This document shows positions 644 to 21,922 of a DNA stretch of 64,000 nt, in pieces. Position numbers and translations under genes: made by a program. Position 1 is the first letter of the stretch; each line of letters begins with the position of its first letter. The notes under the pieces are model-generated. The model saw only the letters and a program-made list of their open reading frames with translations, searched no databases and had not been told where the DNA came from. Source of the stretch: Blastocatellia bacterium. Lineage in GTDB: Bacteria > Acidobacteriota > Blastocatellia > UBA7656. The DNA lies in the NCBI GenBank assembly GCA_963765495.1, contig CAVXWP010000001.1:96001-160000 (forward strand). Direction: 5' to 3'.

Positions 644-1138
644 GTGTACATTTTGCTCGCGATTATAGCGCTCGCTCTCGCGGAGGGCGAAGGCAGCATT
701 ATAGACCTGGACGGCTCGCTCATTGTAGTATTAATTCTGTTTTTGATATTTGTATTCTTGATGACCCGGTTGTTGTTCAAACCCGTTGGCCGGGTTCTGG
801 CCGAGCGAGAGTCGTTAACGGTGGGCGCAGTCACCGAAGCGCGTGCCGCCAATCGCCAATACAAGTCACGCCTTGAAGAGTATGAATCCGCTATACGGCA
901 GGCTCGCGCCGAAAGCTATCGCTTTCTTGAGCAGCGTCGCGCGGCTACGCTCGAAGAGCGCCGCCAGATGATAGAACAGGCCAGGGGCGAGGCTACCGAA
1001 AAGATCGAGAATGCCAGAACTGAAATCGCGGCGCAAAGCGAAACGACTCGCGCCGAACTCGAATCCGAATCCCGCCGAATCGCCGACCAGATTTCGCGCA
1101 CCGTTCTGGGTCGCCCAATCGGAGGTGCAGCCGATTGA
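644..1138 (+). CDS. atpF2: ATP synthase F0 subunit b'
   Basis: TM helix, then LLFKPV..VLAERE and a coiled coil; first of two b-type genes. The start may be TTG at 653, which has better spacing from AGGAG. Confidence 0.85.
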   Translation: MYILLAIIALALAEGEGSIIDLDGSLIVVLILFLIFVFLMTRLLFKPVGRVLAERESLTVGAVTEARAANRQYKSRLEEYESAIRQARAESYRFLEQRRAATLEERRQMIEQARGEATEKIENARTEIAAQSETTRAELESESRRIADQISRTVLGRPIGGAAD

Positions 1139-1689
1139 TTATTGATCCCTTTTTCCAGATGCTTATGCCCGCTCTTGCCGACCCTGCCGCCGGAGGCTCT
1201 CTGCTTAGCAATCCTGACCTGTGGCGGGTGATTAACCTTTTAGTATTCGTGGTCCTGCTTGTTTACATACTCCGCAACAAGCTGAAGATCGGGCGTGTAT
1301 TCGATAACCGCGCGGCCACTATTGTAAAAGAGCTTGAAGAGGCCCGGCGCGATAAACAGGCAGCCGAAGAACAACTCAACCAGCTTACCGAACGGCTCAC
1401 GCGCCTCGACCAGGAAGTGGCCGAAATACGCGCCGAGGCCGAACGCGAAGCCGCGCGCGAGGACGAGCGCATACGCGAGGGCGCACGTGCCGATGCGGAA
1501 AAGATCAGGCAGATGGCCGAACGCGAAATCACGGGCGCTATGAAGGCTGCGCGCACAGAGCTTCGCGCCTTTGTGGCCGAGCACGCGGTCGAGATGGCCG
1601 AGGCGACAATACGGCGCGAAATCCGGCCCGAAGACAACAGCCGGATTCTCGACAAATATATTGAACAGATGCGCGAGGTGAACAGATGA
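1135..1689 (+). CDS. atpF: ATP synthase F0 subunit b
   Basis: WRVINLLVFVVLL TM segment and charged coiled coil; GGAGG SD; lies directly before atpH. Confidence 0.88.
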   Translation: MIIDPFFQMLMPALADPAAGGSLLSNPDLWRVINLLVFVVLLVYILRNKLKIGRVFDNRAATIVKELEEARRDKQAAEEQLNQLTERLTRLDQEVAEIRAEAEREAAREDERIREGARADAEKIRQMAEREITGAMKAARTELRAFVAEHAVEMAEATIRREIRPEDNSRILDKYIEQMREVNR

Positions 1690-2234
1690 GCGTTATGACA
1701 GTAGCCCGTCGCTACAGCGAGGCGCTCGCCGATGTCGCCATCGAGCGCAATCTGGTCGAGCAGATCGACTCCGAGGTCCGGTCTTTTGTGGAGATGATGG
1801 GGCAAAACCACGAACTGCGCGAGGTATTTGCAAGTCCCGTCTTATCAAATGATGATAAGAGCCGTGTGCTTGAAGCGCTCATAAGCCGAAGCAACCCCGG
1901 CAAGATGACCGCAAATCTGCTCAGGACGCTTCTCAAACACTATCGCCTGCACCATCTGGACGCGGTTTACGAACGGTTTCGCCAGGAGATAAACGAGCGC
2001 CGGGGCATCCTTCGCGCAGATATCACGACCGCCGGGCCGGTCAGCGAAGATCAGCAGACGGTCTTGAGCCGGAATATTCAGGAGATGACCGGCAAGAAAG
2101 TTCAACTTCAATTCAAATCCGATCCTTCGCTCATAGGCGGAGTGGTCACGCGCATCGGTTCGGTGGTCTATGACGGCTCGATACGCACCCAGCTTGAGAC
2201 CGTAAAACAACGGCTCAAATCGGGAAGCATTTAG
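1686..2234 (+). CDS. atpH: ATP synthase F1 subunit delta
   Basis: VARRYSEAL N-terminus and DPSLIGGVVTRIGSVVYDGSIRTQL C-terminus. Confidence 0.95.
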   Translation: MSVMTVARRYSEALADVAIERNLVEQIDSEVRSFVEMMGQNHELREVFASPVLSNDDKSRVLEALISRSNPGKMTANLLRTLLKHYRLHHLDAVYERFRQEINERRGILRADITTAGPVSEDQQTVLSRNIQEMTGKKVQLQFKSDPSLIGGVVTRIGSVVYDGSIRTQLETVKQRLKSGSI

Positions 2235-2266
2235 AGGTCTGAGATAATAATTCTCAAATCTCATAT
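2230..2266. repeat. Degenerate 7-mer inverted repeat (TTTGAGA/TCTCAAA) at the atpH-atpA junction
   Basis: tttagaggtctgaga ... tctcaaatctcatat, overlapping the atpH stop codon. Confidence 0.4.
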
Positions 2267-2286
2267 CCGCATTTTTACGGGGGACT

Positions 2287-3852
2287 GTGATGGAAGGAAT
2301 CAGAGCAGACGAGATAAGTAAAATAATTCGACAGCAGATCGAAGGGTTCGACACGAGCGTCGAGATTAGCGAAGTAGGCAACATCATACAGGTAGGCGAC
2401 GGCATCGCCGAGATATATGGACTTGAGCGCGTGATGGCGGGCGAGCTGCTGGAACTGCCGCACGAGGTCGCGGGCATCGCGCTCAACCTTGAAGAAGACA
2501 AGGTCGGCGCGGTCCTGTTCGGCGAGTACGCAAAGATCAAAGAAGGCGATGTGGTCCGCCGCACAAAGCGAATCATGTCGGTTCCGGTAGGCGACGAGAT
2601 TATCGGTCGCGTGGTCGACCCGCTGACTCGCCCGCTCGACGGACGCGGCCCTATAGACACGGGCGGCAAGTTCAATCCGCTTGAGAAACTCGCCCCCGGC
2701 GTTATGGACCGCGCGCCCGTGCGCGAGCCTATGATGACGGGTCTCAAGGCTATTGACGCGATGGTTCCAATCGGACGCGGCCAGCGCGAGTTGATAATCG
2801 GCGACCGCCAGACGGGTAAAACCGCCGTCGCCATTGATGCCATAATCAACTCGAAGGGCAAAGACCTGATCTGCATTTACGTAGCCATAGGTCAAAAGGA
2901 ATCGACCGTCGCGCAGGTACAAAAGACGCTCGAAGATTATGGCGCGATGGCTTATACGATTATCGTGGACGCTTCGGCCTCAAGCCCCGCCGCTATGCAA
3001 TACATAGCGCCGTACGCGGGCTGCGCGATGGGCGAGTACTTCCGCGACCGGGGCCAGCACGTTTTGTGCATCTACGACGATCTTTCAAAACACGCCTGGG
3101 CATATCGCTCTATTTCGCTTCTGCTCAGACGACCGCCCGGACGCGAAGCATATCCCGGCGATGTCTTTTATCTGCACTCCCGATTGCTCGAACGCGCGGC
3201 AAAGCTGTCGGACCTGCTTGGCGGCGGAAGCCTGACGGCGCTGCCGATAATCGAGACACAGGCGGGCGACCTTTCGGCTTACATCCCGACAAACGTCATC
3301 TCGATCACGGACGGCCAGATATTTCTCGAATCCGACCTGTTCCATTCGGGCGTGCGACCCGCAATCAACGTGGGCAACTCGGTTTCTCGCGTGGGCGGTT
3401 CGGCTCAGATCAAGGCTATGAAACAGGTAGCCGGTACGCTCCGACTCGACCTCGCGCAGTTCCGCGAGCTTGCGGCCTTCACGCTGTTTGGCTCGGATCT
3501 CGACAAGGCCACGCAGGCGCAGCTTGCTCGCGGCCAGCGATTGACCGAGATACTGAAGCAGCCGCAGTATTCGCCTATGCCGGTCGAGCAACAGATTATG
3601 ATTATCTGGGCGGCGACCAACGGCTTTATTGACGACGTGGCTATGGAAGATGTGAAGAAATTCGAACAAGGGCTGCTCAATTTCCTTGAAAACGCAAGAG
3701 CGGGCCTGCTCGAAAAGATTCGCACCAAGAAGGCGCTCGATGACGAGTTGCGCGAAGAGATGCGCGCGGCCGTCTCCGAGTTCAAAGAACGCTTTACTGC
3801 CGATATGGGCAGCGCGGCAGGTCGTGCCGCATCTCCCGCCGCGGCAGATTGA
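2287..3852 (+). CDS. atpA: ATP synthase F1 subunit alpha
   Basis: [22 protein letters not shown] (Walker A), [20 protein letters not shown]. Confidence 0.99.
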
Positions 3853-3861
3853 TAGAGGAGT

Positions 3862-3965
3862 GTCGGGAGTCAGGGGCCGGGGGCCGGGGAAGAGAAGTGG
3901 GTGATCTGGTTCGTCAATCTTTCCTTCCGGCCTCCGGCCCCGACCCCCGACCCCCGATCCCTGAT
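3862..3965. repeat. 7-mer tandem inverted-repeat hairpin (GxCRGGR / CCCYGAY) between atpA and atpG
   Basis: Left arm gtcggga gtcaggg gccgggg gccgggg; right arm cccgac ccccgac ccccgat ccctgat. Confidence 0.8.
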
Positions 3966-3966
3966 T

Positions 3967-4887
3967 ATGGCAAATCTTCAAGATATTCGACGGCGAATTC
4001 GATCCGTCAAAAACATGCAACAGATAACCCGGGCCATGAAGCTTGTGTCGGCGGCCAAGCTTCGCCGCGCGCAGGATCGCGTGATCGCGGCTCGCCCTTA
4101 CGCAAACACGATGATCAGCATGCTTTCGCGGCTTTCGCGGCGGGCGGGCGATTTCAAGCACCCGCTCATGGATGCTCGCGGCGATGAACACTATCTGTTT
4201 GTGCTTGTGACGGCCGATAAAGGATTGTGCGGCGCTTTCAACACCAATTTGATAAAGGCCGCGCAACGCTTCATGCAAGAGAACGAAGGCAAGCAGATGG
4301 AGATGGTCGCCGTAGGCCGAAAGGGCCGCGACTTCTTTCGTCGCCGGAAAATCTCCATCGTGGGCGAATATATAAACGTCACCGCTCGCGTGGTTGATTA
4401 CGACGATGCCGCCGGAATCGCGCACAGCCTGATGGAGAGGTACACGGCGGAAGATTCGACTATTGACCGCGTGTTTATCATCTATAACGAGTTCAAATCG
4501 GTCCTATCGCAGCGCGTCGTCATCAAGCAACTGCTGCCCATAGGCTCGGACGCATTCGGCACAGGAGGCGAGGCGGCTGACGCGGAAGCTCAGCCTGCCG
4601 AGAGTAAGAAAGACCCCGAAGTGTTTATCGAATATCTCTACGAACAGCCGCCAGCCGAGATATTCGGTCGCCTGCTTCCGCGCTATGTCGAGACGCAGGT
4701 GTTTTACGCGCTGCTCGAATCGGTGGCAAGCGAACACGGCGCGCGGATGACGGCTATGGAATCGGCTTCAAAGAATGCCGGAGAAGTGATAGAGACGCTG
4801 ACTATCAACATGAATCGCGTACGGCAGGCATCGATCACTCGCGAGATCATCGAAATCGTTTCGGGCGCGCAGGCGCTGGAAGGCTGA
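3967..4887 (+). CDS. atpG: ATP synthase F1 subunit gamma
   Basis: MANLQDIRRRIRSVKNMQQITRAMKLV (conserved start, ATG 3967), DKGLCGAFN, ASEHGARMTAM, RQASITREIIEIVSGA. Confidence 0.98.
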   Translation: MANLQDIRRRIRSVKNMQQITRAMKLVSAAKLRRAQDRVIAARPYANTMISMLSRLSRRAGDFKHPLMDARGDEHYLFVLVTADKGLCGAFNTNLIKAAQRFMQENEGKQMEMVAVGRKGRDFFRRRKISIVGEYINVTARVVDYDDAAGIAHSLMERYTAEDSTIDRVFIIYNEFKSVLSQRVVIKQLLPIGSDAFGTGGEAADAEAQPAESKKDPEVFIEYLYEQPPAEIFGRLLPRYVETQVFYALLESVASEHGARMTAMESASKNAGEVIETLTINMNRVRQASITREIIEIVSGAQALEG

Positions 4888-4926: not shown

Positions 4927-4968
4927 AAGCCCCGTGCCTTTGGAAAGGGACGGGGCTTTATTACTTTT
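4927..4968 (+). terminator. Rho-independent terminator after atpG
   Basis: AAGCCCCGTgCCTTTggAAAGGgACGGGGCTT hairpin followed by TATTACTTTT. Confidence 0.75.
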
Positions 4969-5475: not shown

Positions 5476-5542
5476 GCCACAGAGGCACAAAGACACAGAG
5501 ATTTTTTCTAATCTTCTCTCTGTGTCTTTGTGCCTCTGTGGC
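5476..5542. repeat. Inverted-repeat element (9-mer family) between convergent genes; likely bidirectional terminator
   Basis: gccacagaggcacaaagacacagag ... ctctgtgtctttgtgcctctgtggc, a perfect 25-bp stem. Confidence 0.85.
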
Positions 5543-7011: not shown

Positions 7012-7127
7012 AAGCAAGTTACCTCGTAGGATTGAAATCATTGCGTCGGTCGTTGAAGCGGCCGTGACCTGAGTATAAAAGCATAACCCGAAACCGCGTT
7101 CGAGCAAAAGCCAATAGGCGACAACTC

Positions 7128-7221
7128 CGAGTGACGCGTGACGCGTGATTCGAGCAGGTTTGCAAGTTGTTTAAAACCGGCGGCCTGCCCGAAGGTCACG
7201 AATCACGCATCACTCGTCACG
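7128..7221. repeat. MITE-like element with 7-mer arms (GCGTGAY / TCACGCA) and a 47-nt core
   Basis: The core matches the 12946-13053 element at 34/47 positions (counted by eye). Confidence 0.85.
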
Positions 7222-7240
7222 GATGAGTTTCGTCTGTGAT

Positions 7241-12945: not shown

Positions 12946-13053
12946 AAGTGATGCGTGATGCGTGATGCGTGATTCGAGCAGGCTGGCAAATTGTCTTTAA
13001 CAGGTAGCCTTTCTGAAAGTCACGAATCACGCATCACGCATTACGCATCACTT
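12946..13053. repeat. MITE-like element with 7-mer arms between convergent genes
   Basis: (gtgatgc)x3 gtga ... tcacgaa tcacgca tcacgca ttacgca tcac; contains the stop codon (13048-13050) of the minus-strand gene. Confidence 0.88.
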
Positions 13054-21069: not shown

Positions 21070-21813
21070 ATGGTTGAAGAGATAAGACTGGATGCGCTTG
21101 CGATTGGCGCGCACCCGGATGACGCGGAGTTTTCCTGTGGTGGAACTCTTTTGAAACTGATCTCTCTGGGCTATCGCGTAGGCATACTCGACATGGCGCG
21201 TGGAGAGATGGGCACTCGCGGCAATGCCGAGACACGAGCGCGCGAGGCCGAAGAGGCTGCAACGGTTCTGGGGCTTGTGGTGCGCGACAACCTCGAAGCG
21301 CCCGATGCTCACATCTGGCTGACCGAAGACACCCGCACGCGAATGGTGCGCAAGATTCGCAAGTATCGCCCGCGCATTATCTTCACACATTATTGGGAAG
21401 ACCCTCACCCCGACCACGCGCACACCTGCCAGATAGTGCGCGAAGCCTCGCATGTGGCGGGGTTGGCAAAATACGACGCCGAATCAGGGCAGGAACGGTT
21501 CCGCCCACAGGCCATCGCGCATTTCCTGTTCCCGCGCACTGTCGTGCCTACCTTCGTGGTGGACATCAGCGACTTTGCCCCAAAGAAGCAGGCCGCCGCC
21601 GAGTGTTATCGCTCTCAGCTTTACGACCCGGCTAGCGCCGAGCTTGAAACCGTTATAAGCGACAAAGGGTTCCTCCGCAGGCTGGAATCCCGCCAGAGGT
21701 TTTACGGTGACCTGATTTCCGTAGAACACGCCGAAGCCTTTGTCGTGCGCGAAGCTCTCAATGTTCACGACCCCGTAGAATTGTTGTCGCGAAGAATGAA
21801 TATTTATAGCTAG
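21070..21813 (+). CDS. bshB1: Bacillithiol biosynthesis deacetylase (PIG-L family)
   Basis: GAHPDDAE, GEMGTRG, DPHPDH; directly upstream of bshA. Confidence 0.9.
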   Translation: MVEEIRLDALAIGAHPDDAEFSCGGTLLKLISLGYRVGILDMARGEMGTRGNAETRAREAEEAATVLGLVVRDNLEAPDAHIWLTEDTRTRMVRKIRKYRPRIIFTHYWEDPHPDHAHTCQIVREASHVAGLAKYDAESGQERFRPQAIAHFLFPRTVVPTFVVDISDFAPKKQAAAECYRSQLYDPASAELETVISDKGFLRRLESRQRFYGDLISVEHAEAFVVREALNVHDPVELLSRRMNIYS

Positions 21814-21922
21814 GGGCCAGGGGCCGGGGGCCGGTTATAGATGGAAGATCACAGTATTAGCAAATTGCCGGGGCATCGGCGTAATGACTCGACACCGGCC
21901 CCCGGCGAAGCCCTGGCTCCTA
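21811..21922. repeat. 7-mer inverted-repeat hairpin from the bshB1 stop to the bshA start
   Basis: TAGGGGCCAGGGGCCGGGGGCCGGT pairs with ACCGGCCCCCGGC(gaag)CCCTGGCTCCTA: 25 bp with one G-U pair and one 4-nt bulge. Confidence 0.85.

Follow-up and report, generated by a model that had tools for sequence, protein, structure and literature searches.

A palindromic heptamer repeat between atpA and atpG of a Blastocatellia bacterium, probably tolerated at a junction without a Shine-Dalgarno sequence

Introduction

How does translation of a gene begin when 106 nt, a long hairpin among them, lie between its start codon and the Shine-Dalgarno (SD) motif upstream of it? The question is raised by the junction of atpA and atpG, the genes for the alpha and gamma subunits of the F1 part of ATP synthase, in a Blastocatellia bacterium of the phylum Acidobacteriota (assembly GCA_963765495.1). 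The stretch of DNA that was analysed, called the window here, comprises 64,000 nucleotides (contig CAVXWP010000001.1, positions 96,001 to 160,000 of the forward strand), and coordinates are those of the window unless stated otherwise. A preliminary description of this stretch had read the junction as a split ribosome-binding site, in which a hairpin with arms of 7-base units brings the SD motif and the start codon together. Our analysis points elsewhere. Judged by its sequence, the hairpin is one copy of a dispersed, genome-wide class of palindromic repeats with 7-base units, and on balance we think it probable that this copy is tolerated at a junction that is without an SD and probably coupled, the SD-like motif at its base being at best auxiliary.

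The junction and its fold

The argument turns on the following features.

2287-3852, plus strand: atpA (F1 alpha), an open reading frame (ORF) with Pfam matches to ATP-synt_ab, _C and _N; its stop codon is TGA at 3850-3852
3855-3860, plus strand: SD-like hexamer GAGGAG, 2 nt past the atpA stop and 1 nt ahead of the stem, complementary to CCUCCUU in the 16S rRNA tail
3862-3951, plus strand: heptamer-armed hairpin of 90 nt, defined by the minimum free energy (MFE) fold, by a probability (P) of 0.99 for the pair 3862:3951 and by palindromic alignment
3862-3895, plus strand: 5' arm of the hairpin, beginning GTCGGGA, GTCAGGG, GCCGGGG, GCCGGGG
3896-3917, plus strand: apical part of the hairpin, with a small helix 3900-3904/3911-3915
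3901-3903, plus strand: in-frame GTG within the apical part, opening an ORF 3901-4887; a false start that adds 22 repeat-encoded residues
3918-3951, plus strand: 3' arm of the hairpin, ending CCGGCCT, CCGGCCC, CGACCCC, CGAC
3952-3966, plus strand: unpaired 15-nt tail CCCCGATCCCTGATT, made of surplus 3'-arm heptamer units and lying directly ahead of the start codon
3967-4887, plus strand: atpG (F1 gamma), start codon ATG at 3967; Pfam PF00231, 339 bits, residues 3-304

The atpA stop and ATG 3967 are separated by 114 nt, which run as TA, GAGGAG, T, the four G-rich heptamers listed for the 5' arm, a centre of 30-40 nt, a C-rich run (CCGGCCT, CCGGCCC, CGACCCC, CGACCCC, CGATCCC, TGA) and TT. The preliminary description had placed the stop, the hexamer and the start codon correctly, as both the sequence and the ORFs confirm, and it had rightly called the sequence just before the ATG pyrimidine-rich and devoid of an SD: the last 15 nt are CCCCGATCCCTGATT, and no SD 4-mer occurs in the last 30 nt before ATG 3967. 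The 16S rRNA tail of this genome, GGATCACCTCCTTTCT, carries the canonical anti-SD CCUCCU, and an SD core at -20 to -4 precedes 48% of 773 unambiguous starts against a background of 11.5%, with a peak at -12 to -10; an SD is therefore meaningful in this organism.

A single stem of about 36 pairs, 3862-3951, dominates the RNAfold prediction, and the MFE structure and the ensemble agree on it. The 3' arm exceeds the 5' arm by about two heptamer units, and 15 nt (3952-3966) are therefore left between the stem and the AUG. This departs from the hairpin of 3862-3965 that had been proposed earlier, with a single nucleotide between motif and stem and another between stem and start codon. The pairs of that register (3863:3964 and its neighbours) have a probability of about 0, and forcing it yields -58.7 against -65.5 kcal/mol, a cost of +6.8 kcal/mol; a slip of one heptamer is penalised by +5.9 kcal/mol. 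A strong hairpin is thus predicted, but the juxtaposition by one nucleotide on either side is not. In the predicted fold the bases of the atpG AUG are unpaired with a probability of 0.6-0.7, and the central GG of GAGGAG is weakly paired with C3953-3955 (unpaired probability 0.01-0.02). Freeing GAGGAG costs 2.6 kcal/mol, and freeing it together with the start region 4.4 kcal/mol.

Against dinucleotide shuffles the fold scores z = -2.4, and 5 of 200 shuffles fold equally well. It is only modestly unusual in this comparison because the stretch is very G+C-rich, and the case for a real hairpin structure rests on its membership of a repeat family, not on the shuffle score. Other identities for the structure were considered. 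The 5' arm alone can form a G-quadruplex (G4) in silico (-11.2 kcal/mol); when G4 is allowed in folding the whole context, the hairpin is still favoured as the MFE structure (-71.2 kcal/mol). There is no sign of an intrinsic terminator: no U-tract is present, the stem being followed by CCCCGAUCCCUGAUUAUG, the consensus scan gives no site here, and promoter and terminator scans of 3850-3970 found none. A search of Rfam returned no family at the gathering threshold, only 35 matches at E <=1 to generic miRNA-type hairpins, the best at 36.4 bits against 89. A search for RNA runs over 3300-4500 returned none, and Logan contigs drawn from four DNA runs leave 3792-3955 uncovered.

The junction in related genomes

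The family to which this bacterium belongs comprises 53 genomes, among which the genome of the window (G000) is alone in its genus, and the atpA-atpG junction was read in 46 family genomes; other relatives are labelled G001, G005, G007 and G013, and genera g7, g14, g19 and g20, where they must be told apart. The position homologous to ATG 3967 is ATG in all 53 related junctions read, where it is followed by GCA/CCA AAY CTT, and the tblastn alignment extrapolates to residue 1. ATG 3967 is the true start of atpG.

Ten of the 46 family junctions are tight, with gaps of 1-20 nt between the atpA stop and the atpG start (for example TGAtATG, TGAgttATG and TAAactgatATG), and an SD 4-mer at -16 to -8 is found in none of them. 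The expectation set out in the preliminary description, that relatives lacking the insert would read GAGGAG-N5-9-ATG, is not borne out, none of these ten having any SD. By this comparison the junction was ancestrally short and SD-less in the family.

The remaining 36 junctions are long, one of them with an inserted ORF. Period-7 arrays occur in 27 of the 46, built from at least 15 different units (TCAGCCT, CAGGGGT, ATTGAAA, CAGTTTT, TTTGTCA, TCAGGAT, GGTAGTC, ACTAGGG, CAGAGGT, CAAATCG, GGGGTTA and others), and 29 of 35 junctions hold a palindrome of at least 18 pairs. Both the presence of an array and the type of its unit vary within genera g7, g14, g19 and g20, which points to repeated gain, loss or replacement of hairpins at this site. 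Among six long junctions from other families of the class there was no period-7 array. The placement is regular, with a median of 4 nt from stop to stem and of 11 nt from stem to ATG (35 junctions); tails similar to 3952-3966 occur in relatives, and many 3' arms across the family end ..CTGA(tt)ATG. Set beside the 300 of 3436 co-directional junctions that carry a hairpin in G000, the 27 of 46 family genomes make the junction look like a hot spot of hairpin gain or replacement. What appears to be new here is that changing hairpins recur, family-wide, at the SD-less junction of an essential gene.

SD-like sequences were sought on both sides of the hairpins. Of the 36 long junctions, 4 have a linear SD close to the ATG, which leaves 42 of the 46 family junctions without one. 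Within the first 30 nt past the stop, an SD-like 4-mer occurs in 12 of the 36, and by our own estimate chance would give about 27%. In the nearest relative, G001, whose AtpG is 78% identical, AGGAG lies at the same offset from the stop and is followed by a hairpin of TCAGCCT units; SD-like motifs also abut the hairpin in some g14 genomes, and GGAGGAGGA abuts it in G013. The spacers of G000 and G001 agree at 7 of 9 positions, a level that does not exceed the 70% identity of third codon positions in the vicinity. G007 and G000 have the outer arm sequences GGGAGTCAGGGG and CCCCGATCCCTGA in common.

Two side observations concern the same junction. The heptamer at the end of many 3' arms is similar to the native context, ..CTGAT(T)ATG. 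In G005 the gap between atpA and atpG is 726 nt and appears to hold an extra small ORF.

The repeat class and its place in the genome

The genome of the window is 7.3 Mb long in 17 contigs and has 54% G+C. Tandem Repeats Finder (TRF) reports a period of 7 in 1641 of its 4540 rows genome-wide, and inverted heptamer arrays no more than 200 nt apart make up 492 pairs. From these pairs 476 hairpins were delimited, their limits set by palindromic local alignment; their median length is 111 nt, and the median number of base pairs is 33. The largest unit family is GTGATGC; others are AGGGATG, GAGATTT, GGGGCCG/CCCCGAC, ACTGCCT and AAAACTC. The GGGG/CCCC type, to which the atpG copy belongs, accounts for 48 of the 476. 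At the junction itself the period-7 arrays reported by TRF, 3873-3889 and 3938-3961, are inverted relative to each other, and it is on these grounds that we assign the hairpin to the class. The loop of the atpG copy (3888-3926) is unique in the genome and its arms alone are shared.

We rejected two more familiar classes of element. A miniature inverted-repeat transposable element (MITE) is not indicated, since the loop has no other copy and only the heptamer arms are shared; the flanking TGAT/TGAT is too short to judge. Nor is it a repetitive extragenic palindromic (REP) sequence or a bacterial interspersed mosaic element (BIME), since REPs are defined as palindromes 20-40 nt long whose head is a conserved GTAG or CGTC; the element here is 90 nt long and starts GTCGGGAG.

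Of the gene pairs that flank hairpins, 300 are co-directional, 103 convergent and 25 divergent. Where a hairpin side faces the end of a gene it overlaps the stop codon in 302 of 530 cases; where a side faces a start, 56 starts lie at <=6 nt from the stem and 81 at 7-16 nt. If the hairpin is removed in silico, the gap that remains is <=20 nt at 41% of the 300 co-directional junctions, compared with 27% of the 3136 that are hairpin-free, and about 120 junctions of this genome fall into the former group. The arrangement between atpA and atpG is thus typical for this genome, and an ordinary site for its repeats. We also observed an asymmetry of the arms: among hairpins with a start within 25 nt, the arm nearer the downstream start exceeds the other arm in 99 and falls short of it in 56 (p = 0.0007), and the surplus of a longer start-facing arm makes a short, unpaired heptamer tail ahead of the start codon.

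If hairpins generally bridged an SD to a start codon, the motif should reappear at its usual distance once the hairpin is deleted in silico, and we looked for it at -14 to -8. With the purine-rich AGGGATG family excluded, a bridged SD was present for 8 of 60 hairpins (13%) with a start within 8 nt; the rate was 10% at positions displaced by 10 nt and 5.5% for 455 sides facing gene ends. At junctions with a residual gap of <=20 nt a bridged SD occurs in 21.5% of 107, below the 35% of 850 ordinary tight junctions (Fisher p = 0.005). The raw rates of SDs 5' of the stem, 25% where the start is within 6 nt and 10% in a convergent control, had suggested more; we discounted this enrichment, which is inflated by the AGGGATG family and shrinks to a small excess after its exclusion and the use of virtual positions. 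At most hairpin-abutted genes an SD is absent from both sides of the stem, and no more than a minority have a bridged one.

The preliminary description had taken the atpG junction for an independent second case of a geometry seen at bshB1-bshA (21811-21921). The two are not independent: the bshB1-bshA junction is occupied by a GGGGCCN hairpin of the same class, and it has no SD 5' of the stem. The 5' base of that hairpin holds the upstream stop codon TAG (21811-21813) and its 3' base abuts the downstream ATG; the fold has an MFE of -68.1 kcal/mol (z = -3.5), and an ATG in its loop, at 21841, creates a false extension.

How atpG may be translated

Since the hairpin-free junctions of the family are only 1-20 nt long and carry no SD, atpG is probably expressed by coupling to the termination of atpA translation and/or by SD-independent binding of ribosomes to an unstructured start region. 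We suggest that this would remain the main route in the present genome after a palindromic heptamer repeat had settled right behind the atpA stop codon, as such repeats do throughout the genome. The insertion may be tolerated for the following reasons: the RNA folds back; with 9 nt between the atpA stop and the stem, and 15 nt between the stem and the atpG AUG, stop and start would remain neighbours in space; and the AUG region (3952-3990) would stay single-stranded. GAGGAG would then act at best as an auxiliary, long-spaced SD or as a standby anchor, and would probably be dispensable rather than the required half of a rebuilt ribosome-binding site. It is towards this account as a whole that we lean.

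Several points weigh against it. The genome-wide censuses rest on crude gene and start calls based on ORFs. The 13% of bridged SDs against 5.5% is a weak excess, and some bridged SDs may exist. GAGGAG matches the anti-SD strongly and stands exactly at the base of the stem, and the placement of this hexamer, of AGGAG in G001 and of the SD-like motifs in g14 could reflect selection for a bridged SD. Finally, we know of no experimental precedent in bacteria for coupling across a hairpin of 90 nt.

The principal alternative is the split ribosome-binding site itself, in which GAGGAG pairs with the 16S rRNA tail, the stem loops out some 90-104 nt and the SD acts on AUG 3967. We hold this to be a real but minor possibility. 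Parts of the proposal stand: the motif lies 1 nt from the base of the stem, the last 15 nt ahead of the AUG hold no SD, the 16S rRNA carries the anti-SD, SDs are used by about half of the genes, and the proposal agrees with the AGGAG that G001 has at the equivalent offset and with GGAGGAGGA beside the hairpin in G013. The stem cuts the path from SD to AUG from 106 nt to 1 + 15 nt (about 16) plus the width of the helix, and only 2.6 kcal/mol is needed to free the SD. The spacing so obtained is nevertheless above the 5-11 nt at which the precedents, bacteriophage T4 gene 38 (22 nt shortened to 5 nt) and gene 25 (27 nt shortened to 11 nt), are described as working (PMC3014915). Spacings of about 10 nt or 2 nt would follow from slipped registers that cost +5.9 and +6.8 kcal/mol, but the probability of these registers in the ensemble is about 0; the ribosome might nevertheless induce slippage. 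None of the ten hairpin-free relatives has an SD, so that no ancestral ribosome-binding site is visible that could have been split, and since a linear SD is missing from 42 of 46 family junctions, atpG can do without it. SD-like 4-mers past the stop occur at about the rate of chance, the spacer shared with G001 is no better conserved (7/9) than third codon positions (0.70), and the genome gives no general signal of bridged SDs (8/60, with controls of 10% and 5.5%).

A variant of the coupling that we favour, stem-bridged coupling, strikes us as unlikely in this specific form. Ribosomes ending at the atpA stop would be handed across the base of the hairpin to the tail and the atpG AUG, in a bacterial counterpart of ribosome shunting for which GAGGAG at the stem base would be a holding site. 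The roughly 120 junctions that are tight once their hairpin is removed, the arrays in 27 of 46 family genomes and the sequence of stop, hairpin and start at bshB1-bshA, where no SD is present, are consistent with it. If it were true, heptamer hairpins would be 'translationally transparent' and therefore able to colonise tight operon junctions.

It is also conceivable, if quite improbable in our view, that the hairpin is a processing or stability element. Cleavage by RNase III, or a block to 3' exonucleases like that set by REP hairpins, would uncouple the atpA and atpG parts of the mRNA and allow more alpha than gamma subunit to be made, which would be compatible with the other models. RNase III needs roughly two helical turns of duplex. 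The G+C-rich stem of about 36 bp is longer than that, an RNase III gene is present in the genome (PF14622, 131 bits), and the hairpin, lacking a U-tract, is not a plain terminator. The concentration of arrays at this junction (27/46, as compared with 300/3436) would fit a function, and hairpins adjoin gene 3' ends genome-wide, as the paired heptamer arrays of Xanthomonas are described as doing (PMC4692102). However, ten relatives, some of them in the same genera as hairpin carriers, have no hairpin at all, and a fixed stoichiometric role is therefore not required; the fast turnover of hairpin units fits selfish or neutral DNA equally well.

That atpG begins instead at GTG 3901 inside the hairpin, with a product of 328 aa, which the preliminary description had named as the finding that would undo its proposal, can be dismissed as virtually impossible: although the frame is open from 3901, the 22 added residues are repeat-encoded and not conserved, ATG stands at the 3967 position in all 53 homologous junctions, the Pfam gamma model opens at residue 3 of the ATG-3967 product, and an N-terminal extension of this kind is excluded because the atpA stop lies only 1-20 nt ahead of that ATG in 10 relatives of the same family.

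Comparison with known systems

The closest formal analogue is the split ribosome-binding site of T4 genes 38 and 25, where a hairpin shortens a linear spacing of 22 nt to 5 nt in the former and of 27 nt to 11 nt in the latter (Nivinskas et al. 1999; Malys & Nivinskas 2009; PMC3014915). As the published account presents them, these genes share with atpG the succession of SD, stable hairpin and AUG with no SD at normal distance, and the T4 gene 26-25 case is likewise intercistronic. The T4 hairpins are described as small, however, with final spacings of 5 or 11 nt, whereas here 90 nt would be looped out and about 16 nt, plus the helix, would remain. In close T-even phages the T4 arrangement is reported to be conserved, and it has been tested by mutation; the present one is known from its sequence, and hairpin-free relatives are without an SD. 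The hairpin here is, moreover, a copy of a dispersed repeat and not a dedicated structure.

As a repeat, the element resembles the inverted GGGAATC arrays of Xanthomonas and the G-rich heptamer repeats of Nostoc (Rehm et al. 2015, PMC4692102). According to that account these have arms of tandem heptamers in convergent pairs with the potential to form stem-loops, are dispersed and mostly intergenic, lie nearer the 3' end of the upstream gene and, as here, include G-rich units with runs of G. The present repeats differ in belonging to another phylum, Acidobacteriota, in the many unrelated units found in one genome, in their frequent occurrence in tight operon junctions where they abut start codons, and in that the hairpin wins over the G4 in the predicted fold. 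Our search of the literature on heptamer hairpins in Acidobacteria found no paper on the phylum, although this was a limited search and not proof of absence.

The tail of the 3' arm has a counterpart in the direct TAACTGA repeats of marine Beggiatoaceae, which are reported to lie a few nucleotides before starts, in the place of the ribosome-binding site, and to be followed by genes most of which lack an SD (MacGregor 2015, PMC4679880). A heptamer tail before an SD-less start is common to both, and 3' arms in the family studied here often end ..CTGA(tt)ATG. The Beggiatoa repeats are direct, with one inverted set reported in that study, while the repeats here are inverted pairs that form long hairpins and leave a short direct-repeat tail unpaired.

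REP and BIME sequences of enterobacteria are described as dispersed extragenic palindromes (PMC3733652). The heptamer hairpins are similar to them as extragenic palindromes that stand behind stop codons and inside operons. They differ in size and build, REPs being 20-40 nt long with a GTAG or CGTC head, while the hairpins here are 75-175 nt long with arms of tandem heptamers and, in the atpG copy, no head. REP elements have been proposed to stabilise upstream mRNA.

Significance

Were GAGGAG to act across the stem, the junction would be a cellular case, in a core operon, of the T4 type of split ribosome-binding site, made by the insertion of a repeat. That an essential gene stays expressed without an SD while changing hairpins of 75-200 nt stand between the upstream stop and its own start seems to us more telling than a split ribosome-binding site. 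Together with the 120 or so similar junctions of this genome, it offers a natural test bed for how initiation or re-initiation copes with large structures, and the same junctions bear on why palindromic repeats can spread in operons without polar damage. There is also a warning for annotation: heptamer repeats yield false N-terminal extensions such as that from GTG 3901.

The operon and further copies in the window

The junction belongs to an F-type ATP synthase operon at the opening of the window, in the order b'-b-delta-alpha-gamma, with all genes confirmed by Pfam. The features not listed above are as follows.

644-1138: gene for the b' subunit (ORF and Pfam)
1135-1689: gene for the b subunit (ORF and Pfam)
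1686-2234: gene for the delta subunit (ORF and Pfam)
about 4928-4968, plus strand: terminator-like G+C hairpin with a T-rich tail, 3' of atpG, read by eye

The terminator-like hairpin is the probable end of the operon, although the consensus terminator scan did not flag it. The next ORF after atpG is a VanZ-like gene, and atpD is not found there. The genes for subunits a and c do not precede the operon (644-4887), upstream of which lies a response regulator gene, and those for beta and epsilon do not follow it; the ATP synthase genes therefore occupy at least two loci. The same genome has another, distant gamma-like match (30% identity) at G000:C3:81933-82766.

Further copies of the repeat inside the window lie at 5478-5540, 7114-7237, 12946-13053 and, at bshB1-bshA, 21811-21921. 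The GTGATGC-type hairpins at 7114-7237 and 12946-13053 have in common both their arms and a similar loop (GATTCGAGCAGG.T.GCAA.TTGT..TTAA...), and in this sub-family the whole element has been copied, unlike the atpG copy with its unique loop. The hairpin at 5478-5540, between the VanZ-like gene and a convergent peptidase-like ORF, is built of 8-nt units (three of CACAGAGA and three of TCTCTGTG), and the unit length of the repeat class is therefore not strictly 7.

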